A DNA stretch of 64,000 nucleotides from a virus (taxonomy: Duplodnaviria > Caudoviricetes). This document shows positions 6,606 to 56,384 of this stretch, in pieces (the first letter of the stretch is position 1; each line of letters opens with the position of its first letter). The notes below the pieces were generated by a model, which worked only from the letters and a program-made list of their open reading frames with translations, was not told the DNA's origin and searched no databases. A program made the position numbers and the translations under genes. The DNA lies in the IMG/VR virus record IMGVR_UViG_3300034061_006011; one strand, 5' to 3'.

Positions 6606-8372
6606 ATGGATAATTGGAAGAAAAAATACAAGTCTTTAAAAGACTACTATTTAAATCAATATGACTCAGAATTCTATTCAATAGATAACTATCAATTGGA
6701 AATTGATCCAAATGAAACTATTGATGATGTTTCTGCTTATAATCAACAAAGACAAGAAGAAGAAACATATAAATGCATGCAATCTTTTTCTTATTTTTGC
6801 CATAAATATATCAGAATTTTGCATCCAACAAAAGGCTTAGTGCCATTTATAATTTTCAAATACCAGCAAAGAGTAATTGATGATTATGAAAACCATAGAT
6901 TTAATATTATCTCAAAATTCCGTCAGGGTGGTTTAACAACAGTAACATTGCTTCACGGACTTTATAAAGCATTATTCACACTCGATTTTTCAATGATGCT
7001 TATATCAAAGTCTGACCGTGAAGCTGTAGAAGCTGGATACATCGTCGATAGAGCTATTGAACATTTACCAGAATGGCTTAAACCTAAAAAAGATGGTAAG
7101 TGGAATGACCACCTTAAACAAATTACTGAAACAGGTGGTAGCCTTAGATTTTATTCGCCAGAAGCCGCCCGTGGAAAGTCTGTGGCATTCATTTGTATAG
7201 ATGAAGCAGCATTCTTACCTAATATGGAAACGGACTGGAGAGCTTTGTATCCAGTTCTTTCAACAGGTGGTAAATGTTCAATTATTTCTACAGTCAACGG
7301 TACAGGTAACTATTATTACGAATTATATACAGGAGCAAAAGAAGGTAGAAACAAATTTAATATTATTGATATTGACTATCACGAACATCCTTTCTATAAT
7401 TCGAAAGTAAATCCAGAATGGGCAGATGAACAAAGAGCACAGCTTGGCGAAAAAGGTTTCTTACAGGAAATTCTTAGAGTATTCCTTGGATCTGGTGACA
7501 CATATATTCCCGGTAAAGAATTAGCAAGACTTGATGAAGAAGTAAAAAATGGTTTTCCTAAAAGGAAACTTTTTGCAAAATATCAAAATAAAACTAAAAA
7601 CGATGATCCAGATATGAAAGAAGAAAATAAAGGAGCATTGTGGATTTGGAAAGAACCAGCACCAGCAAAAGAATATATATTCGGTATAGATTGCTCAGAA
7701 GGAGTAATGGCTGATAACTCTTGTATTCAAATTGTAGATACAGAATCAAGAGAACAAGTTGCTGAATTTTATTCCAACAACATAACACCTTATGAATTTG
7801 CACAAGTAGTTTATGAATTGGCAATTTTATATAACAATGCTTTGCTAGTGATAGAAGATATGGCTGCTGGCATGTCAGTAATTAACACTTTGCAAAATGA
7901 GCTTTATTATGATAATTTTTATTATCACAATCCAGATTCAAGAAATGCTAGAATTGGAATTAAAACAACTGTCTCTACAAGACCGTTGATATTGACAAGC
8001 TTTCAAACAGCAATTTTGCAAAAATCATTAAAAGTAAATTCTGTAAGACTATTGCATGAAATGAAAACATTTGAATACAATAATACAACTAAAAAACCAG
8101 AAGCTCATAAAGGTAAACATGATGATGCAATTATGGCTTTGGCTTTATGTTTGTATGTCCTGTCAACTCAAAACAAATCTCAACCAGCAGGATATGATGG
8201 TAAAAAAGCTAAAGCATCAATACTGCTAGAAGATATAAAAAAAGAAATCAGCGAAAATATGAAAGCGAATTTTAAGTCAAAATTTAAACCAAAAGAAGAT
8301 AATAAAGATTATTCAGAAATGATTGCACTATATCGACCAAAAAATACACTCTTAAATGAGTTTGGGTGGTGA
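6606..8372 (+). CDS. terL: terminase large subunit (T4 gp17-like)
   Basis: KFRQGGLTT Walker A variant, ICIDEAAF Walker B, IISTVNG coupling motif, RNase H-like nuclease GIDCSEG...HDDAIMA. Confidence 0.93.
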   Translation: MDNWKKKYKSLKDYYLNQYDSEFYSIDNYQLEIDPNETIDDVSAYNQQRQEEETYKCMQSFSYFCHKYIRILHPTKGLVPFIIFKYQQRVIDDYENHRFNIISKFRQGGLTTVTLLHGLYKALFTLDFSMMLISKSDREAVEAGYIVDRAIEHLPEWLKPKKDGKWNDHLKQITETGGSLRFYSPEAARGKSVAFICIDEAAFLPNMETDWRALYPVLSTGGKCSIISTVNGTGNYYYELYTGAKEGRNKFNIIDIDYHEHPFYNSKVNPEWADEQRAQLGEKGFLQEILRVFLGSGDTYIPGKELARLDEEVKNGFPKRKLFAKYQNKTKNDDPDMKEENKGALWIWKEPAPAKEYIFGIDCSEGVMADNSCIQIVDTESREQVAEFYSNNITPYEFAQVVYELAILYNNALLVIEDMAAGMSVINTLQNELYYDNFYYHNPDSRNARIGIKTTVSTRPLILTSFQTAILQKSLKVNSVRLLHEMKTFEYNNTTKKPEAHKGKHDDAIMALALCLYVLSTQNKSQPAGYDGKKAKASILLEDIKKEISENMKANFKSKFKPKEDNKDYSEMIALYRPKNTLLNEFGW

Positions 8373-26549: not shown

Positions 26550-27713
26550 TCAACTGCCCCTTCTATCCATAATAACTTCACCCCTGCAACCATCTATAAT
26601 TGAATGGTAAGAGGCTGCAATTTCATTAAATCTACTGTCCAAACCATCTAGCAAACTATCAAAATTTTCCGGTTCCCTACCTGCAAATAATTTTTGCAAC
26701 TTTACTTTGTAATTAGGATCAACTATCGGCAACCTTCCTCCTTGAGTTAACCAAAATACAAATATCTCCATTTGTAACTCCCCAGAATTTAAAGCCTGTT
26801 GTAAATCCATTTTCGATTTTATAAATTGACCCGATCTGGCTCCAGATATTATCTTAAACGCTTCCTTTATACTCCAAATACTAGGAAACAAAATTGTTAG
26901 AAAATCTATAGTTATATTCCCTATTCTTTTTTGTATTTCTTCATCAGTATACAAAGCTTCTTTATTACCATCTTTCAACACATCAATCCAACCTTGATAA
27001 AACTGTGGATACATCGGACTAACCAAAAAGTCTTTCAAAAGTTCCTTAACTAAATTTTCAGCTCTAACACAATCCTCCTGAATTTTATTCATGTATGTGT
27101 TGCCATAATCTGCTGTACGAGCAAGTGACCCTCTATCAAAAATACCATGTGCAAATGTGTGAAGAATCAACCAAGGAGTCAAAGGATCAGCAGCAGTACT
27201 CGTCTTCATGTAAACAATATCATTCTCACTTATGTTCATTCCGTCACGACCATAAAAATAATTTTTTAATTGATTGTAGTTGTCTTTAGTTAACTCTTTA
27301 CTTATGGTAAATCCTGACTTAATATCATCTTTAGGATAACCAAAATAGAAATGTATGTTCACAATACCAAGCTTCTCTAACTTCTTTTCAAGACCAGACA
27401 TTATCAATTTAAAATTTCTAGGATTCTCTATAATTTTCTTGTCACCACCTTTAAAATTGTGATCCCAACCAGAACTACCATATCGACTACCAACATCATC
27501 AGAATCAATATCCTTGTCTGGAAAATGCTTTTTATACTCATCACCATAATTTGAACCAAATTGAGAAGACCAACCATAATCATTAGACGGCGGCTGATTT
27601 TGCAAACCCTGTGAAAGATTATGCTGAACCGGATAACCTCCAACTGACCCTAAAACTTCATCAATTGTAAATTTATTGTCATTAATCAAAAACCACTCTT
27701 TAAATCTTTTCAT
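26550..27713 (-). CDS. tagged protein with degenerate zincin motif (MKRFKEWFL)
   Basis: PLTPWLILHTFAHGI...ELQMEIF. Confidence 0.65.
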   Translation of the reverse strand: MKRFKEWFLINDNKFTIDEVLGSVGGYPVQHNLSQGLQNQPPSNDYGWSSQFGSNYGDEYKKHFPDKDIDSDDVGSRYGSSGWDHNFKGGDKKIIENPRNFKLIMSGLEKKLEKLGIVNIHFYFGYPKDDIKSGFTISKELTKDNYNQLKNYFYGRDGMNISENDIVYMKTSTAADPLTPWLILHTFAHGIFDRGSLARTADYGNTYMNKIQEDCVRAENLVKELLKDFLVSPMYPQFYQGWIDVLKDGNKEALYTDEEIQKRIGNITIDFLTILFPSIWSIKEAFKIISGARSGQFIKSKMDLQQALNSGELQMEIFVFWLTQGGRLPIVDPNYKVKLQKLFAGREPENFDSLLDGLDSRFNEIAASYHSIIDGCRGEVIMDRRGS

Positions 27714-27851: not shown

Positions 27852-27975
27852 AAAATGAAATAAAATTATTCCAGATTTTTAGAAAATGAAATAAAATTAT
27901 TCCAGATTTTTAGAAAATGAAATAAAATTATTCCAAAATTTTAGAAAATGAAATAAAATTATTCCAAAATTTTTT
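27852..27975. repeat. 4 x 31-bp AT-rich tandem repeat
   Basis: AAAATGAAATAAAATTATTCCA(G/A)A(T/A)TTTTAG. Confidence 0.95.
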
Positions 27976-28339: not shown

Positions 28340-28524
28340 TGAATGCCGATTGATCCCCACACTACTATTATCGGCATTCAACCAACCAGACTTGAACCAA
28401 CCTAAAGATTCTTCCTAACCACATTTTAGTATCCTAAGTTTGTCCGCATTGTCTCAATTGAAATAACAATAAAAAAACCCCCTTCTCCGGGTGGAGAAGG
28501 GGGCTGTTGATTATTGTTAGCCTA

Positions 28525-29190
28525 TCATTCAGATAACAGAATCATTTCTAATTCCCCCCCACGGATTCCCATTGAAGGGAATCCCTTGGCTGAATAAATT
28601 CTTTCGATTGCGTCTTCGGACGTTAGCCCGAAGACGTTTTGCAATTGTTGGAACAGGCACTTCAAATGGCGATCCAGTGCCAACTTTGTTATCACAATAA
28701 CAAAGTTTTCAATGGTGCCGTTAACACGGCACGCCGTCCCAGTGGGACGGTTGATTTCAAAATTAACCGTCCCAAGACGGTTCACATCCCACTTATAACG
28801 CCCACTGGCGGATTGATCCGCCGGTGTTGGTAGTGGGTGTTGACAATTACAATAAGTATCCTGATCCGCATTGAAATAGTCCGCCCAATCAATGGGCGTT
28901 CCAATGCACGCCCAAAGATGCCCAAACGAATGGGCGATTTTACGGGACACCCGCAATTGTGCGGGTGTCATTTTTGAAGTCTCAAAACTGAATTCATCGG
29001 GATACCGAAGTGGCTCGCCACTCCAGTGGCGTGAACAGTCTCGCTTGCCCCGTAGGGCAAGCGATGCGATTTCAGCGGCATTGGGTGCCGCAGCGTTCTT
29101 CCTGATCCAGTGGTTGAGATACGCAACACGACCGGTTGCGGTTGCGGTTGCGGTTGCGGTTGCGGTGGCGGTGGCGGTTGAAATGGTCAT
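28525..29190 (-). CDS. hypothetical protein with N-terminal (TA)n microsatellite
   Basis: start moved to 29190; 8 x CGGT(T/G)G at 29133-29180. Confidence 0.7.
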   Translation of the reverse strand: MTISTATATATATATATATGRVAYLNHWIRKNAAAPNAAEIASLALRGKRDCSRHWSGEPLRYPDEFSFETSKMTPAQLRVSRKIAHSFGHLWACIGTPIDWADYFNADQDTYCNCQHPLPTPADQSASGRYKWDVNRLGTVNFEINRPTGTACRVNGTIENFVIVITKLALDRHLKCLFQQLQNVFGLTSEDAIERIYSAKGFPSMGIRGGELEMILLSE

Positions 29191-29552
29191 GTTCGATACT
29201 CTCATGCCCGTTTCAGGTACGGGTGGACCTTGGCTAAGGTGAACCACAACATGCGGTTCACCTACGACTATCTTAACATCATCCCCAACTAGGTCAAGAG
29301 AAAATCCACCCAAGAGAAAAGATTCCTCCCATCCACATTTTAGTATCCTAGTGTTGTCTCAATTGTCCAGCAATAGGATTCCTCCCATCCACATTTTAGT
29401 ATCCTAGTGTTGTCCACATTGTCCAGCAATAGGATTCCTCCCATCCACATTTTAGTATCCTAGTGTTGTCTCAATTGTATCAATTCAGATAACAATAAAA
29501 AAACCCCCTTGACTTGTCTGTCAAGGGGGTGGTTGATTAAGTTAGCCGATTG

Positions 29553-29759
29553 TTATTTAATTTTGTCGAGCCACATATCGATGATTCCAGAAACCAGTTT
29601 CCTTTCCTTTGGTTTCATTCTTAGAAACATTTTTAGATGTTCAACGATTTTCTCGAATCGTTCCAGCTCATTTTTGATTCTTTTAAGTTGTTTGTCTACC
29701 CTCTTTGGGCGAGAAACCTTTCCATCAACAATGCGGCTTGATTCGTTTTCAGTTCTCAT
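29553..29759 (-). CDS. small coiled-coil hypothetical protein
   Basis: own promoter, leader and terminator. Confidence 0.65.
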   Translation of the reverse strand: MRTENESSRIVDGKVSRPKRVDKQLKRIKNELERFEKIVEHLKMFLRMKPKERKLVSGIIDMWLDKIK

Positions 29760-30006
29760 GGTATTCGATCCATACGGTTTTCAGGGGAACCGGGAACCTA
29801 GAAGCGGCACACTATGCGCCGCCTCATGCATTCATTCTACCATCATCCCCAACTAGGTCAAGGGAAAAGAAAAGATTCCTCCCATACACATTTTAGTATC
29901 CTAGTGTTGTCTCAATTGTCCAGCACAATATCAAAATTGAAATAACAATAAAAAAACCCCCTTGACTTGTCTGTCAAGGGGGCTGTAGTTTTGTTATCTG
30001 ATATTG

Positions 30007-30273
30007 TTATTTTGTGAACGCCTCCAGTATTGCCTTCATGGCAACGTCTCTTATTTCACTCTTAGGCAAACGCATGATTGCCCGCATACAAGAGATTTTA
30101 TTCTTGTAGCTTTTGAGTAGGTCATCCAATGGCGTTTTCTCCCTTGCGTGGGGTATTTCCGGCAGATTAAACCGCTGTGGCTTATCGCACTTAATGTATT
30201 CCTTGTATTCCTTTTCCCGCTTGTCGGCGGTTGGAGAAACGGTTGCGGCAACGGCGTTACGCTCAATTTTCAT
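30007..30273 (-). CDS. hypothetical protein
   Basis: own promoter and leader shared with 29553-29759. Confidence 0.65.
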   Translation of the reverse strand: MKIERNAVAATVSPTADKREKEYKEYIKCDKPQRFNLPEIPHAREKTPLDDLLKSYKNKISCMRAIMRLPKSEIRDVAMKAILEAFTK

Positions 30274-30585
30274 AGCAGTCGATCCAACCGGTTTTCAGGG
30301 GAACCGGGAACCTAGAAACGGCACACTATGCGCCGCCTCATGAAGTCATTCTAACAACGTCCCCAACTAGGTCAAGAGAAAATCCACCCAAGAGAAAAGA
30401 TTCCTCCCATCCACATTTTAGTATCCTAAAGTTGTCCGTATTGTATCTTAAGAGGAATTCCTCCCATCCACATTTTAGTATCCTAAAGTTGTCCGTATTG
30501 TATCGTAATAGGAATTCCTTCCATCCACATTTTAGTATCCTAAAGTTGTCTTAATTATCTAGAACGATATCAAAAAAGGGTGTAA

Positions 30586-31785
30586 TAGTGTTAGCCGATA
30601 ACGAAATAGCGGAGATAACGAAATGGCGGGAATAGTGTTAGCCGATAACGAAATAGCGAAGATAACGAAATGAAGGTAATAGTGTTAGCAGATAACGAAA
30701 TTAAAGATATGAAAACAAAAAAACCCCGCAAGCCTTTCGACTTGCGGGGCAGATTGACCGGCAGGGGTTGTCATGTTGTCGTGTGTGATGTAATCTTGAT
30801 CACATTATTGGAAACACCTTGATAAACCGGAGACATCTTACCCGCATGAGTGAACTCAATTCCGTAATTGGCACCGACACGGAATTCGGTTTCCGTTCCG
30901 GGTTCATAAGCCACGAAACCGATATTCGTTGCCTCATGAACAAAGTTCACGATGCGAGTTGGTTTCCCATATCCCCAGCGTACTGGTGAAACCCCTACGC
31001 ATATCACTTCAATATTGTAATTACCCGGCTCAATCGCTTGAGTGATTGGCGTTGGCAATTTAATAGCTGCAATTGGTGCAAGTGGTGCAATTGGTGCAAT
31101 TGGTGCCACTGGTGGCACTTGCGCCACTGGTGCCACTGGTGGCACTTGCGCCACTTGCGCCAACGCTGCCCTAAGCGTTGCCAATTGTTCGGGGTTGAAA
31201 CCCCGAACAAGATCAAGCATCGACTGGCTTGCATCGATTGCCACTGGTGCGGAAACGGACTTGGCGTTCTTGCGGGGTGCCATGGTCATAAACTCCATGC
31301 CAGTTTCAGGATACTGGCGGAACCGGTTAAGGTGAACCACAACATGCGGTTCACCTACAAGCATCATAGGGAAACCGTTTCACTAGGTCAAGCGAATTCC
31401 CAAGAAAGTTTCCTTACAAATTCTTAAGATCCGCGGACCCCCCCCCCTCCCATCCACATTTTAGTATCCTAAAGTTGTCTCAATTGTCCAGTCTGGTAAC
31501 AAAAAAGGAATTCCTCCCATCCACATTTTAGTATCCTAAAGTTGTCTCAATTGTTTCTAAAAAAAACAAAATTAAATTATAATATTTAATTTCATAATTA
31601 AAATAGTTATCAGATAACGAAAGTGGCAATAATGTTAGCCGATAACGGAATAGGGGAGATAACGGAAACGGTAATAGTGTTAGCGGATAACGTAAGTGGG
31701 AATAGTGTTAGCGGATAACGGAAGTGGGAATAGTGTTAGCGAATAACGGAATAGGGGAGATAACGAAATTACCGATATGAAAACA
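30586..31785. repeat. two blocks of GTTAGCNGATAACG / GATAACG repeats (30586-30712, 31605-31785)
   Basis: about 5 and 7 GATAACG copies; both blocks adjoin the same terminator. Confidence 0.9.
30771..31289 (-). CDS. hypothetical protein with AP-rich linker and beta-rich C-terminal domain
   Basis: start after GGAG at 31289; AQVPPVAPV repeats. Confidence 0.7.
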   Translation of the reverse strand: MTMAPRKNAKSVSAPVAIDASQSMLDLVRGFNPEQLATLRAALAQVAQVPPVAPVAQVPPVAPIAPIAPLAPIAAIKLPTPITQAIEPGNYNIEVICVGVSPVRWGYGKPTRIVNFVHEATNIGFVAYEPGTETEFRVGANYGIEFTHAGKMSPVYQGVSNNVIKITSHTTT

Positions 31786-31841
31786 AAAAAACCCCGCAAG
31801 CCTTTCGACTTGCGGGGCAGGATTGCCGATATGTTATTCGA

Positions 31842-32099
31842 TTATGCACCAAGCCAGATGATCTTGGTGTTCTTATTGGCAAGATGACGGGTGAGCAGGA
31901 AGACGAGATCAGTGTCTTCCTTTTTTGAAATCATCTTGATTACGTCACCGTTTCGATCAACGGTCAATTGAACCGAAGTTCCTTCAATCTGGTTCATTCC
32001 AAGGCTTGTCACCTTGGAAGTGGACAACGCTTCAACAATTGCGTTATCTACTTTTGCGTCGATGAGAACAGCAATCGAAACCTGAATATTGTTATTCAC
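31842..32099 (-). CDS. hypothetical protein
   Basis: own promoter, leader and terminator. Confidence 0.6.
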   Translation of the reverse strand: MNNNIQVSIAVLIDAKVDNAIVEALSTSKVTSLGMNQIEGTSVQLTVDRNGDVIKMISKKEDTDLVFLLTRHLANKNTKIIWLGA

Positions 32100-32359
32100 G
32101 GTAAGAATCTCAATCCGGTCTTAAGGTGAACCGGTGACCTAGGCTTGTTGAACCATTCACCAAGCCATGAACGTATTAGACCACAAACGCCAAACCACGT
32201 CAAGAGAAAATTCCAGCAGGAGAAAATTCCTTCCATCCACATTTTAGTATCCTAAAGTTGTCTCAATTGTCCAGTCTGATAACAAAATTGAAATAACAAT
32301 AAAAAAACCCCCTTGTCCGGGGGGACAAGGGGGCTGTCAATTTTGTTCTGTTATGAGAT

Positions 32360-32593
32360 TCACCACCAAGCGGTAGCGTTCTCCTTGCTCACTTCTGAAA
32401 TCTTGATCAATATCGAAACGAGACTATCACGAAGCTCGTCATTCGATTGATCATTTCTGAATTCTTCAACGAGTACCTTGTACTTGGCTACAAGCTTTTC
32501 AATCTTTGAAATAACATTGAGAAGCTGTTTGCTTGGAACCTTGGAAGCTTGGGCTTCCTCTTCTGCCGTCATGATTCTGTTATCGTTGTTCAT
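32360..32593 (-). CDS. small coiled-coil hypothetical protein
   Basis: GGAG RBS, start at 32593. Confidence 0.6.
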   Translation of the reverse strand: MNNDNRIMTAEEEAQASKVPSKQLLNVISKIEKLVAKYKVLVEEFRNDQSNDELRDSLVSILIKISEVSKENATAWW

Positions 32594-32983
32594 TTTGTTT
32601 TCTCCAGTGCTTTGCGACACCATGCCGCATTGAGCAAACACAATTTACCACAACCAACCGCAGCTTGTCAACAACACTATTTGCCCCTATTACGGTAGGA
32701 GATATACAGCCGTGTATATGTAGGGATTAGTATGCAAGATATGCAACGCCGATGGTGAACCGTCGATAAGCCGAACGGATTAGATAAGCATAAGACGGAA
32801 CCGTCCCATCCACATTTTAGTATCCTAAAGTTGTCTCAATTGTCCACGCAGATATCAAAACGACGATATGCCCCATCCACATTTTAGTATCGTAAAGCTA
32901 GTGGAATAGTAGCTTATTAAATAACAATAAAAAAACCCCCTTCTCCGGGTGGAGAAGGGGGCGGTTGATTATGTTAGCCTAAC

Positions 32984-34084
32984 TTATTTGGCTTCTTGAT
33001 TTACCTTTTCAAGAGACTTCAGAATCATTGCAAGCTCATGGCGGCTTGCACAATTCTTAGCACCTTCAATATGTCCTGCAAAATCTGAAATGAACTTCCG
33101 TGCTTCAGATTTTGCATCACATTGTTTTTCAAGGAATAACAAAAGTCCATCGATTTCCTCCCTAGACAATCCCTTTTGCCGCTTTTCGGCGGTTGGGGAA
33201 ACAGTTGGTTGGTTCAATGGTGGCAGTGGTTGACGTGATGGAGGAAGGACAGAAGAAGGAGTCTTCGGGTCCACTTTAGGTGGCATTGCTGCACCTGAAA
33301 GATTGATAGGTGGAAGATCTTTCTTCTTCTCTTCGATCTTAGCTACGGCTTTGGCTTCTGCTTTTGTGGCAGCAGAAGGAGCAATACCAGAATTGATTCC
33401 TTTATCGGCAAGCTTCTTGTCGATAACGTCAATAATTTTATCGTTGAGCTTCTTCTTCTCTTCCTTGCTCTTGTCCATTTCTGAAATCACTTCGGTTGCT
33501 GCGGCAATGTCCGCCATGACTTCAGGAGGAACAGCCTTTCCATTCTTCCTTTCTAACAAACGAAAAGCGGAAGACTTCGTATATTCTCCTTCATGGATAG
33601 ACAATTGAATTGCTTCGGGCAACTTGAGCAATTTCAAAAAGTTTGATACTTCAGAATCTGAAATATTAAAATGCGCTGCTATGGTCTTTTGTGTCCAATT
33701 GAATTCCTCCTTAGCCCGTAGCATATCCTTAGCCCGATCAATGAATGAAGGATTGTGATATGAATTCTCAACAATCTGAATTACGAAATGATCTTCTCTG
33801 GTCCTTGCCTTGTAAACAAGAGCTGGAATCTCCTTTAATCCAGCTTCTTTAGCTGCCATGGTACGGCGAATGCCGCCCATGACTTCAAAAGTGCCGTCTT
33901 CCTTTTCATTCAGAATGATATTCTGAAGAACTCCATGAATCTTAATGTTATTTGCCAATTCTGTGATTGACGCTGGGTCCATTCCAGCCTTCCGATTCCT
34001 TGACAAATCATAATTGATTTTGTCAAGAGCAACGATCATCCGAACAGAAGCAGGTGAAGAAGAAACCTTAGATGCCTTAGCCAT
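32984..34084 (-). CDS. parB: ParB/Spo0J-family partition protein
   Basis: SIxELAxNI..HGVLQNI, GGIRR box II variant, EN, HTH WTQKTIAAHFNISDSEVSNFLKLLKLP; start after GGAG. Confidence 0.85.
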   Translation of the reverse strand: MAKASKVSSSPASVRMIVALDKINYDLSRNRKAGMDPASITELANNIKIHGVLQNIILNEKEDGTFEVMGGIRRTMAAKEAGLKEIPALVYKARTREDHFVIQIVENSYHNPSFIDRAKDMLRAKEEFNWTQKTIAAHFNISDSEVSNFLKLLKLPEAIQLSIHEGEYTKSSAFRLLERKNGKAVPPEVMADIAAATEVISEMDKSKEEKKKLNDKIIDVIDKKLADKGINSGIAPSAATKAEAKAVAKIEEKKKDLPPINLSGAAMPPKVDPKTPSSVLPPSRQPLPPLNQPTVSPTAEKRQKGLSREEIDGLLLFLEKQCDAKSEARKFISDFAGHIEGAKNCASRHELAMILKSLEKVNQEAK

Positions 34085-34702
34085 TTCAAAATCTCCTATT
34101 TTGTTTTCTTTCAGGATCAAACTGTTCTCACCTGAAAGAAACCGTTCCGCCCTTTAGCGGTGAACCCATTAAACCACAACCGGCTTAACGTGTCAAGTGT
34201 TTTTTTTCCTCGGCAAAACAAGCGTTTTTAACACTTGCAACTTCAGAATTGAACACGGTTGGCGTTGTGTTTTCACAAATCCACCCAAACCACACCACCA
34301 TCAAGGACACCCTTAGTATACGAAAAACACCGAGGAAAATCAAGTACCTCTTATATATTGATATCATAGGCGCGCGCCCCCTTCCATCCACATTTTAGTA
34401 TCCTAAACCCATCTTTAATTGATACTAAAATGTGAATGGGGATGGGCGGTTTTATACAAGTATAAAATCATATCAATCGTTTGATTCGATTCCTTCCATC
34501 CACATTTTAGTATCCTAAAGTTGTCTCAATTAGTTTTGCTCAAGTATCAACTAAGTCTCAATTGCGTTTTTTCAACTATCTGTAAAGGGGAAATTACATT
34601 TCATAATCATTCCTCCATCCACATTTTAGTCTCAATTAAAGATGTGCTTAGGATACTAAAATGTGGATGGAACCGGACAGTCTTATACTAATACAAAATC
34701 AA

Positions 34703-34766
34703 TTCATTCGTTTCATTTGATTCATTCATTTGATTCATTCGTTTGATTCATTCGTTTGATTCGTTT
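34703..34766. repeat. 13-mer AT-rich tandem repeat TTTGATTCATTC(G/A)
   Basis: three full units at 34716, 34729, 34742 plus partial flanks. Confidence 0.9.
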
Positions 34767-34882
34767 CTTTCCCATCCACATTTTAGTCTACAAGAAGTGT
34801 AGCTTATTAAATAACAATAAAAAAACCCACCTGAGATGTCTCAGGTGGGTGATGAATTTTAGATTGTTAGAGTCTTATTTGA

Positions 34883-35221
34883 TTACGATCCAACAAGGCT
34901 CTCATTCAATTCAAGATGCATTTCTAATGTGTCACCGGGACGCATACCACCCCGATAATCCAACTCTTTGAACTTCTGACAAATGATACCGAACAACTCA
35001 TTCTTGATTCTGTCATGCTCTTCAGGATCTTCTGAGAAAGGAATGGGAACATTCCAACTCTTAATACTACAAGGATCACCCTTGAGAAATAATTTAGATG
35101 CATTAAGGATTTCCCATCCACATGATGCAAGTGGCAATCCAAAGAAAATTTGCCTGTTATTTGTGTGCATTGTATAGACGTTACCGGATGGTGACCTATG
35201 GAAGTAGAATACTGTATTCAT
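34883..35221 (-). CDS. early hypothetical protein
   Basis: promoter-hairpin-GGAG cassette; start moved to 35221. Confidence 0.65.
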   Translation of the reverse strand: MNTVFYFHRSPSGNVYTMHTNNRQIFFGLPLASCGWEILNASKLFLKGDPCSIKSWNVPIPFSEDPEEHDRIKNELFGIICQKFKELDYRGGMRPGDTLEMHLELNESLVGS

Positions 35222-35289
35222 CTCATTCTCCTTATCGAGTACCCGACTTCCCACTGTGTTCCATCAGGTACTCAAATTGTATCAAACTA

Positions 35290-36248: not shown

Positions 36249-36674
36249 CTTCAATTCCTCCATTGCAGGTGCGATTTGCTCCTGTTTACACATTGTAACA
36301 AAAATATTTTGTTATGTCAAGAAAAATTTTCAACTAGGCGCATACATATTATTTCATACAACGTGCATATTGCACCTATTAGACACAAAGAGAGTATGAA
36401 TATGTAATAGCGGGCGTTTGACCCGCTTCCTTTCCTATCCTTCACTTGGATAGGTTTTTTTATTTGTATAATGCTTCGCTCCATTATTTTCCACAAATCC
36501 CCATTTCATCCCACCTTATAAAACCTGCCTTACATTATATCTACTTTTCTCAATCCTGATATGTGACTACTTTCCATATCATTTATGTAATTGGTTTGAA
36601 ATAGTTTTAATTATTCCATAAAAAAACCCCTTGGGGATTAGCCAAGGGGTTGATATGGATAGTGTTGATATGTG

Positions 36675-37004
36675 TTATTCTTCTTTAAATGGTAATTCTT
36701 TGTGGTGCCGAATACGAAGGAGTTTAGATTCTGAATCGGTTAAAGAGTTATTGCAGACTACTCTAACTTCATTAAGTTGGAGTTTTTCCATCAACTCCTT
36801 TAATTGGATCTCTTCCGTTATTGGTTGTACCATTGCAAATGGTACATAGGGAAGATCATCTACTTCTCCTATCTGTGTCCCATTTGGTGTTTCATACTCC
36901 ACCTGATCACCTGCAACGAACTCCTGAGACACGAACTTGTTGTCTTCAAATCTTTGGATAACAAAACCGTGCGTAATCTTATAAACCATCTCTTGATACT
37001 CCAT
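36675..37004 (-). CDS. early hypothetical protein with C-terminal DUF932-derived fragment
   Basis: ends VVCNNSLTDSESKLLRIRHHK, matching 39569-40549. Confidence 0.7.
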   Translation of the reverse strand: MEYQEMVYKITHGFVIQRFEDNKFVSQEFVAGDQVEYETPNGTQIGEVDDLPYVPFAMVQPITEEIQLKELMEKLQLNEVRVVCNNSLTDSESKLLRIRHHKELPFKEE

Positions 37005-55002: not shown

Positions 55003-55557
55003 TTATACCGAAAGATCCCTAAAGACTGCTATTAGTTTTAACAAGGATTCACTTTCTAATTGAATCCTCATATCATTACTGTTGGGTCCATTATACTCAA
55101 GTTCCTTGTCATAGTCAAGGAACATTTTTTTGGATTCTGGCAAATAGATTCTTTCTTGCAGAGATAATTTACTTAATGCTTCCCGAAATGTTTCAATTTC
55201 CCGATCATTTCTCTTTTTATCTACTATAAACTGTTCAGGAGATTGGTCATCTTCAACTACAATAGTTGTTTCAAAGTCAAGAACATTTCTATGATATCGT
55301 TTCTTATGCATCCATAAAGATCGGGCACCTTTCATTTGCCAAGCAGCATGACCGGAGAAAGATCCTTTAGTTGGATCATAAGTGGATGCAGCAACGACCA
55401 AGCTCATCATAAGCTCTTGCCGATATCCTTCTTCATCACGAAAATAAACACCTTTTGGAGTTCTTTTAAGGAACCATTCTACCAATGCAATATTATCTTC
55501 TACCAACTTCCTTTGAGTATTAGTCAAAGGAGAAACTTCTTTTTTTTGTTTAGCCAT
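55003..55557 (-). CDS. sigma70-family region-2 protein
   Basis: LVEDNIALV...ELMMSLVVAASTYDPTKGSFSGHA. Confidence 0.75.
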   Translation of the reverse strand: MAKQKKEVSPLTNTQRKLVEDNIALVEWFLKRTPKGVYFRDEEGYRQELMMSLVVAASTYDPTKGSFSGHAAWQMKGARSLWMHKKRYHRNVLDFETTIVVEDDQSPEQFIVDKKRNDREIETFREALSKLSLQERIYLPESKKMFLDYDKELEYNGPNSNDMRIQLESESLLKLIAVFRDLSV

Positions 55558-55727: not shown

Positions 55728-56384
55728 TTATTCTTCAAATTGGTCCCTTAGCCTTTCTACGCATTTTTTTGTTATCTGTTGAATGCGTTGTCGTGTAACT
55801 CCAAGTTCATCAGCAATACTTTGAAAACTTTTTTCATTAAAATAATGGTCTATGACTATTTGTCTGTGATGAATAGGAAGAACATTTAGGTTAATATAAA
55901 ACACAACTTTCTCTTCTTGTGGTTGCCTTAAAGTTGAATGTTTTGATTTGCTAATTACTTTATCGTTAATTGTAATTAGTTGATAATTATCTTTCCTTCT
56001 TCTATTTTTTACAAAATAGATTTCATAAATCCTTCTAAAGAAAGATGTATAGAAGTATGTCATGAACAAGACTTCACCGGGGATGAAGTATTTCTGGCAG
56101 CTACAATAGACATATAAAGCAATATTTTTAGCTTCCTCTAAATCTAATTTAATTTTATATTTTTCTTTGAATTTGCTGGCTAATTTTCTGGAGAAGTATG
56201 TTGTCATTTTGATAATATCTTCTTTAGGAAATTCAATATTTTTAATATCATTGTCTATATTTCTGCGATTTGCTTCATTTTGAGCAATACGCAGAGAATA
56301 CTTTTTATTTTCTCTTCCTATCTTTATGTCTACACAATCATTTGTTGTATAGACATATCCATCCTTGGTTTTAGTGTACCACAT
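55728..56384 (-). CDS. sigma70-family-like protein with region-4 HTH
   Basis: LP...RQIVIDHYFNEKSFQSIADELGVTRQRIQQI. Confidence 0.75.
   Translation of the reverse strand: MWYTKTKDGYVYTTNDCVDIKIGRENKKYSLRIAQNEANRRNIDNDIKNIEFPKEDIIKMTTYFSRKLASKFKEKYKIKLDLEEAKNIALYVYCSCQKYFIPGEVLFMTYFYTSFFRRIYEIYFVKNRRRKDNYQLITINDKVISKSKHSTLRQPQEEKVVFYINLNVLPIHHRQIVIDHYFNEKSFQSIADELGVTRQRIQQITKKCVERLRDQFEE

Follow-up and report, generated by a model that had tools for sequence, protein, structure and literature searches.

A repeat-rich non-coding hub upstream of a ParB-family gene in a large T4-like lake phage: a possible control region of an early regulon

What is the role of a repeat-bearing non-coding gap that lies directly upstream of a ParB-family gene in a large uncultured phage? 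The gap is located in the stretch of 64,000 nucleotides analyzed here (the window), and a first-pass annotation had proposed it as a candidate bidirectional replication origin, with a T5-like injection-stop or genome-end signal as the alternative. In agreement with that description, the 798-bp gap, bounded by the start of parB (34084) and by the stop of the gene upstream of it (34883), holds only short ORFs, all of them starting inside repeats, and Rfam and tRNA scans of the window found nothing. The source of the window is a large uncultured T4-like lake phage of about 238 kb, presumably lytic. The longest contig carrying the ParB protein of the window measures 237,814 bp, a T4-type large terminase is encoded at 6606–8372 (best match with 46% identity, in a 595-kb uncultured phage record), and strain contigs extending the left flank encode a T4-type portal, prohead protease and gp23. 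The G+C content is about 0.30 to the left of 28 kb, 0.42–0.45 at 28–34 kb and about 0.38 to the right, and from 24.7 to about 53 kb essentially every gene lies on the − strand. No DNA match was found between the G+C-rich island and cultured-phage records. At the left island edge, just upstream of the gene at 26550–27713, four 31-bp A+T-rich tandem repeats were observed (27852–27974).

The island is marked by a repeat, R, whose core is CCATCCACATTTTAGT on the + strand, or ACTAAAATGTGGATGG when read on the − strand. A scan with the 16-mer CCATCCACATTTTAGT, allowing up to three mismatches, returned 19 matches, all within 28415–34787, with 1.1 expected by chance; R is present in every intergenic gap of the island and absent from the window outside it. 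Seventeen of the 19 copies are on one strand, co-directional with transcription, and the only two inverted copies (34424–34439 and 34655–34670) both belong to the cluster upstream of parB. The invariant part of R is asymmetric and 16–22 bp long, without dyad symmetry in the core, which is the size of a protein site. In the viral contig collection, no match to the R 22-mer was found. Four matches to a 19-mer in genome contigs, considered as a clue to the host, were discarded as chance, all being located inside coding sequence (D-T-K-M-W-M).

Six R copies, including the two inverted ones, are gathered in a 440-bp non-coding stretch just upstream of parB, the densest R cluster, to which we refer as the hub (Table 1). 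Within 34382–34787 they are of mixed orientation and 40–119 bp apart. The hub consists of a duplicated unit (34382–34524 and 34612–34800), in each of which a forward R leads, via a repeat tract and a short stretch resembling a palindrome, to an inverted R placed back-to-back with a forward R. The inverted copies pair with those at 34384 and 34615 at a start-to-start distance of 40 bp, so that the two head-to-head pairs noticed in the first-pass annotation are indeed there (34382–34440 and 34612–34672). These 58-nt pairs are 93% reverse-complementary to one another and, as single-stranded DNA, each folds to a hairpin of 14 to 20 bp. Both inverted copies, R2 and R5, are directed into repeat tracts, which are not unstable; promoter activity of R itself is a prediction. 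A consensus promoter scan missed the probable parB promoter, whose −10 element has no A at position 2. The palindrome resembling an IHF site was rejected as a signal, since the window contains 12 such matches and 11.8 are expected by chance.

Table 1. Features of the hub, of parB and of the neighboring island
Feature	Position	Strand	Evidence or remark
Intrinsic terminator of the upstream gene (34883–35254); right hub edge	34825–34850	−	11-pair stem and T-run
R1, core-only copy, co-oriented with the − strand genes	34772–34787	−	
Tandem 13/9-bp repeats, copy number strain-variable	34703–34771		
R2, inverted copy, pair A with R3	34648–34672	+	pair z = −6.4
R3, GAGAC variant of the core	34612–34633	−	pair A flipped in strain L010
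Spacer of ~90 bp with two further AATTGAGAC motifs and a 10-codon mini-ORF	34525–34611		one variable site in 10 haplotypes
R4, full-length copy	34494–34524	−	
Small palindrome matching the IHF consensus on both strands	34471–34486		not above chance
R5, inverted copy, pair B with R6	34421–34440	+	pair z = −3.9
R6, then G/C-rich block (34368–34381)	34382–34412	−	
Sigma70-like promoter TTGATT-17-TATACT	34315–34343	−	9/12 positions; invariant in 10 haplotypes
Probable parB promoter TTGACA-17-TTTAAT, TG upstream and A-rich tract	34160–34195	−	read from sequence
parB, full-length ParB/Noc-type, N-terminal domain and HTH	32984–34084	−	Pfam ParB_N 2e-13, HTH_ParB 1e-10
Remaining 13 R copies, clustered by one, two or three	28415–32888	−	between terminator and TTGACC/TTGACA promoter
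GTTANCNGNTAAC quasi-palindromes, 5 copies; second array of 3 at 30590–30696	31606–31747		
Least stable 50-mer of the 64-kb window, between palindrome array and two R copies	31555–31605		−47.4 kcal/mol

Outside the hub, the R copies are embedded in a recurrent arrangement. Eight times along the − strand of the island, a strong intrinsic terminator precedes R, which is present in one to three copies; next come a promoter of the sigma70 type, a hairpin leader and a small gene with its ribosome-binding site. The promoters of these cassettes are TTGACC-16-TAGAAT or TAAGAT with TG upstream, with TTGACA in two of them, and the R core is separated from the −35 element by 19, 29, 31, 31, 31, 40, 58 or 135 nt. 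R is absent from the cassettes at 35–38 kb, whose promoters follow the consensus TTGACA-17-TGnTACAAT, and it therefore labels a promoter class of its own. Cassette copies of R carry an upstream GACAAC/AATTGAGAC module together with a −35-like TGGACA, and both are missing from the hub copies; hence it is the core, and not a promoter, that is kept. The conserved small island proteins gave no match to a DNA-binding family and no usable lead in Pfam, PHROGs or Atlas.

Several of these properties, namely the restriction of R to one promoter class, its placement between terminator and promoter, its co-orientation, its variation in copy number and its asymmetric core, argue for the hub being a protein-binding control region, i.e., an operator or nucleation hub of a ParB-centered early regulon. 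Of the readings considered, it covers the largest number of observations, and we give it somewhat less than an even chance. The broad range of R-to-promoter distances (19–135 nt) counts against it, as it fits a strictly phased activator poorly, and so does the finding that no small island protein resembles a DNA-binding family.

The same cassettes bear on a different possibility, in which R is, or overlaps, a promoter used by host sigma70 or by a phage sigma-like protein, and the hub is a cluster of divergent promoters. R always comes after a terminator and before a gene, eight cassette copies read TGGACA-16-GATACT or similar (9/12 positions), the −10 and the start site both falling within the R core, and the window does encode sigma-like proteins (55728–56384, Sigma70_r4; 55003–55557, weak r2 match). 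The T4 origins oriF and oriG are made up of a promoter and a downstream A+T-rich unwinding element of about 50 bp (PMC3016281). The hub could likewise prime an R-loop of this type through its 13-mer tract. The TGGACA and GATACT elements, however, score as a weak promoter, and promoter-like matches of this grade occur at chance level (34 vs. 27 expected in the region). In addition, conservation is highest downstream of the putative −10, a −35 is missing from the hub copies, each cassette contains a better sigma70 promoter after R, and tandem copies 56–57 bp apart would crowd RNA polymerase. We therefore consider it rather doubtful that R acts as a promoter.

In order to place the hub among its relatives, around 40 loci from many lake samples were compiled by exact-protein look-ups and by a 19-mer scan of metagenome contigs. 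The six-copy pattern (forward, inverted, forward, forward, inverted, forward) was found in every locus covering the region, with spacings of X, 40, 119, 71–72 and 40 bp common to 20 assemblies representing 10 haplotypes. X, the distance between R1 and R2, is 95, 104, 117, 130, 135 or 169 bp and is set by the copy number of the 13-mers, which thus behave as a VNTR; the number of R copies per cassette also varies between strains (1 or 2; 2 or 3). ParB and the hub were present in all 10 contigs found through a flanking gene. Since 20 independent assemblies cross the site, an assembly junction, which would have spoken against the origin proposed earlier, is not what is seen here. All these relatives are strain-level, with the flanking gene 95–99.7% identical, and the conservation of the hub accordingly carries little weight. 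The idea that the hub is more conserved than its genes was dropped, as the flanking gene is equally conserved and parB is the outlier.

Two further observations on variation of R were made in this comparison. In strain contig L010 (1857–5141), 10 of 11 R copies carry GTGTATGG in place of GTGGATGG, a concerted change across dispersed copies, and the 58-bp pair A has the opposite orientation to that seen in every other strain. Moreover, a G10 homopolymer (31430–31440) directly after an R copy has nine or ten Gs depending on the strain.

The protein encoded next to the hub was most similar among PDB entries to chromosomal ParB/Noc chains (about 1e-15), with KorB at 3e-6, and its GxxRR (GGIRR) and EN motifs are invariant in 10 alleles. 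Identity among its homologues falls from 60% straight to about 36%, the latter being bacterial ParB proteins. Matches in phage records reach at most 38% identity, and no relatives were found in the viral contig collection. With respect to a parS-type system, the ParB_N and HTH_ParB domains are both there, R is not palindromic, and no ParA-type family was found among the window ORFs scanned. The lack of palindromy also weighs against the hub as the control region of a ParB-centered regulon, because ParB/Noc-type dimers bind palindromes.

Between strains, parB DNA identity is 68–77% (window vs. L006, L010 and L011), compared with 95–99.7% for the flanking gene and 93–98% for the hub. The alleles fall into three classes that differ most just after the HTH (approximately residues 130–240). 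Such divergence points to allele replacement or diversifying selection, and its rapidity amid near-identical strains suggests a module under unusual selection. Co-variation between ParB and R was looked for and discarded, none of the three allele classes being linked to an R variant.

Palindromes do occur elsewhere in the island. The quasi-palindrome GTTANCNGNTAAC is present in 8 copies, with 1.2 expected, confined within the window to two arrays with periods of 47 bp (30590–30696) and 28 bp (31606–31747), along with extra CGTTATC half-sites. In its most frequent forms it agrees with the KorB operator (OB) core TTTAGCGGCTAAA at 10 of 13 positions (PMC11790492). Candidate ParB loading sites are more probably these KorB-operator-like palindromes, at 30.6 and 31.6–31.7 kb, than R.

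As for the proposed origin, third-codon GC skew (GC3 skew) on the + strand was determined for 112 non-overlapping ORFs. In the first-pass annotation, the + strand had been judged by eye to be C-rich to the left of the island and G/T-rich to the right, which the calculation corroborated (C-rich at 11.5–28.4 kb, G/T-rich at 37–47 kb). At 11.5–28.4 kb, GC3 skew was −0.42 for the 13 + strand genes and −0.38 for the 8 − strand genes; it was about −0.09 in the island (28.4–34.1 kb), −0.19 at 34.2–37.1 kb, and +0.27 at 37.1–47.3 kb. In a regression, side contributed 0.25 and orientation only −0.06, with the side term halving the residual sum of squares, and − strand genes alone retained the flip (−0.51 in the left arm, n = 6, vs. 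+0.24 in the right arm, n = 21; p = 4e-12). Consequently, the flip is not an artefact of gene orientation, and it has an origin-type polarity, with C enriched to the left and G to the right.

A skew inflection therefore persists after orientation is controlled for, but it occupies a broad zone whose best fit is about 37.0 kb and not 34.4–34.8 kb. The best single breakpoint was 37.0–37.2 kb (bootstrap 95% interval 28.0–37.9 kb), and the six genes at 34.9–37.0 kb are still negative (−0.17; 93 G vs. 131 C pooled, binomial p = 0.013; p = 0.002 vs. the right arm). When the analysis was extended 10 kb past each window end by means of strain contigs L012 and L015, the skew was near zero or weakly positive there; it is thus local and fades within about 20 kb on each side. 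The evidence from skew is further limited by the foreign-looking composition of the R-bearing island, which may simply not be at equilibrium. That an origin lies somewhere within the skew zone is a fair hypothesis.

Other compositional features of the window were recorded alongside. A second orientation-independent sign change in GC3 skew occurs at about 59.7 kb, from positive (53–59.7 kb) to negative (59.7–63 kb). The stretch at 11.5–28.4 kb, a variable island of capsid-tagged genes, shows a very strong + strand C3/A3 excess in both gene orientations, with skew down to −0.83, far exceeding what is seen in the structural genes on its left. The tandem repeats at 27852–27974 sit exactly where the strongly negative skew ends. 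Within the − strand gene block, a 380-bp non-coding gap (36293–36675) contains + strand terminator-like hairpins (36412–36454) and one TTTTCCACA box at 36487. This gap, near the best-fitting skew breakpoint at about 37.0 kb, could hold a small + strand RNA gene.

The orientation-independent flip, with the polarity of diverging leading strands, is left unexplained by a control hub and is an argument for the hub as a bidirectional origin, at which R would bind an initiator (phage-encoded, or host DnaA via the CCATCCACA core) and the 13-mer tract would open. The skew is strongest near the island and fades outward, as expected if recombination-dependent replication follows firing. The hub is the sole place of inverted R copies, and R matches 7 of 9 positions of the DnaA box through CCATCCACA, with strain variation falling on the N position of the box. 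Furthermore, compositional bias is known to shift at the active T4 origins, and iterons of undefined function are present in T4 oriE (Kreuzer and Brister, PMC3016281). The hub resembles T4 origins in belonging to a T4-like phage and in its nearby bias shift, its direct repeats and its promoters adjoining A+T-rich DNA; it differs in that T4 origins are located at switches of transcription direction (PMC3016281), whereas both hub flanks are transcribed leftward, and in that its 13-mer tract is not unusually unstable.

Regarding this tract, the AT-rich 13-mers described previously are present and rich in A+T (77%; 13-bp unit at 34712–34762, 3.9 copies, 97% matches by Tandem Repeats Finder), but they are not an exceptional unwinding element: with −59.9 to −60.6 kcal/mol per 50 bp they stand at the 63rd–69th stability percentile of the window, and they are a VNTR. 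The canonical DnaA box TTWTNCACA occurs 11 times in the window, which is the chance level, and not at all at 28.4–34.9 kb, and no Rep or initiator family was detected by Pfam and PHROGs among the island and flanking ORFs. Also unfavorable to an origin at the hub are the breakpoint at 37.0 kb with the six still-negative genes, the 13 of 19 R copies that are located at promoters elsewhere, and the renewed sign change at about 59.7 kb, owing to which the skew domains are not simple replichores. Taken together, of the traits of an iteron origin the clustered repeats are present and a skew flip exists in a broad zone around the site, while an unstable tract, canonical DnaA boxes and an initiator gene were not found, and we regard bidirectional initiation at the hub as unlikely. 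Similarly small is the chance we assign to a broader version, in which early replication truly starts at the hub or in the island around it, with firing organized by an R-binding initiator and a ParA-less ParB clamp; the decaying skew would then be the mutational footprint of fixed-direction forks before recombination-dependent replication randomizes them.

A site 3 kb to the left, with palindromes and the least stable 50-mer of the window, is more origin-like than the hub. The A+T tract at 31555–31605 is about 96% A+T within a G+C-rich island, compares with a window mean of −62.3 kcal/mol and is conserved in strains. An origin could accordingly reside at 31446–31820, with the hub being only regulatory: five quasi-palindromes spaced by 28 bp, the unstable 50-mer, two R copies and a promoter follow one another, in the order (iterons, unwinding element, boxes) known from plasmid origins, and the site is strain-conserved and inside the skew-breakpoint interval. 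Nevertheless, the same palindromes recur at 30590–30696 without an AT tract and resemble KorB/ParB operators more than Rep iterons, no initiator gene was found, and the genes from the site to 37 kb have no positive skew. This location is, in our judgment, quite improbable.

The arrangement of convergent R copies about a possible bend site is reminiscent of lambda cosB, and the hub might in principle be a packaging (pac/cos-like) site, or else the T5-like injection-stop or genome-end signal suggested earlier. The injection-stop region of T5 (iss) is untranslated DNA with conserved direct and inverted repeats, DnaA-like boxes and two near-identical inverted modules set apart (10.1101/866236); in its repeats and modules it is similar to the hub. 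It differs in being part of a terminal repeat, in a genome with fixed ends, and in its paired consensus DnaA boxes (10.1101/866236). The phage studied here has a T4-type large terminase, which points to headful packaging; no terminal repeat was seen, 20 assemblies cross the site unbroken, the hub has no consensus DnaA box, and R is spread over 6.4 kb at promoters. Both variants are thus very improbable.

The possible control hub was then compared with regulatory and replication systems known from plasmids. Iteron plasmid origins (P1 incC/incA, R6K gamma and pPS10) have asymmetric direct repeats of about 20 bp, inverted operator copies and a nearby partition gene. The hub shares with them the asymmetric direct repeats, the inverted copies and the neighboring partition-type gene, and it deviates from them in lacking a Rep gene, a canonical DnaA box and a tract of low stability, in the spacing of R (56–119 bp compared to about 22 bp) and in that most R copies are found at unrelated promoters.

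The kor regulon of the IncP plasmid RK2 (PMC11790492) provides another parallel: a ParB-family protein among small operons that share operator-type repeats near their promoters, and two site families in one control region, with the palindromes described above matching the OB core. Differences were also evident. RK2 is a plasmid and the present locus belongs to a large T4-like phage, in which neither ParA/IncC nor a KorA homologue was found; R is asymmetric, tandem and placed 19–135 nt upstream of promoters; and the ParB protein has its closest matches in chromosomal ParB/Noc proteins, KorB being more distant. It is in anatomy that the locus resembles such a regulon. The locus is a member of none of the families tested. 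It combines operator/iteron-type arrays and a ParB-family protein with an unusual host, a large T4-like phage in whose window no ParA was detected.

Returning to the hub as a control region, we propose that R would be the recognition site of a sequence-specific DNA-binding protein governing the early-gene cassettes at 28.4–34.9 kb. After injection, host RNA polymerase would fire the cassettes until the CTPase-type protein of the ParB family, together with a partner that binds R, had accumulated and shut them off, a burst on entry and later silencing like that of the RK2 kor circuit. Protein bound at the hub could bridge or loop the DNA and might thereby tune both parB expression and the promoter at 34315–34343. 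The sequence data show the anatomy of the locus, the place of R relative to terminators and promoters, the hub in all strains covered and the family of the ParB protein; we infer the binding of a protein to R, the identity of that protein and the direction of its effect (repression or activation). Control functions and origin activity could coexist at the hub.

Almost nothing is known about where replication starts and how early genes are controlled in uncultured giant phages, and the locus described here is a compact system, with one asymmetric repeat, one palindrome family and one ParB, that is found across many lake metagenomes. If the locus is an origin, a locally decaying, orientation-independent skew would offer a way to find origins in phage metagenome assemblies; it would be a sequence-only signature of T4-type origin use, and a plasmid-like origin/ParB module would exist in a lytic giant phage. 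If the hub is instead an operator or nucleation center, KorB-like global control by ParB proteins would extend from plasmids to a T4-like phage.
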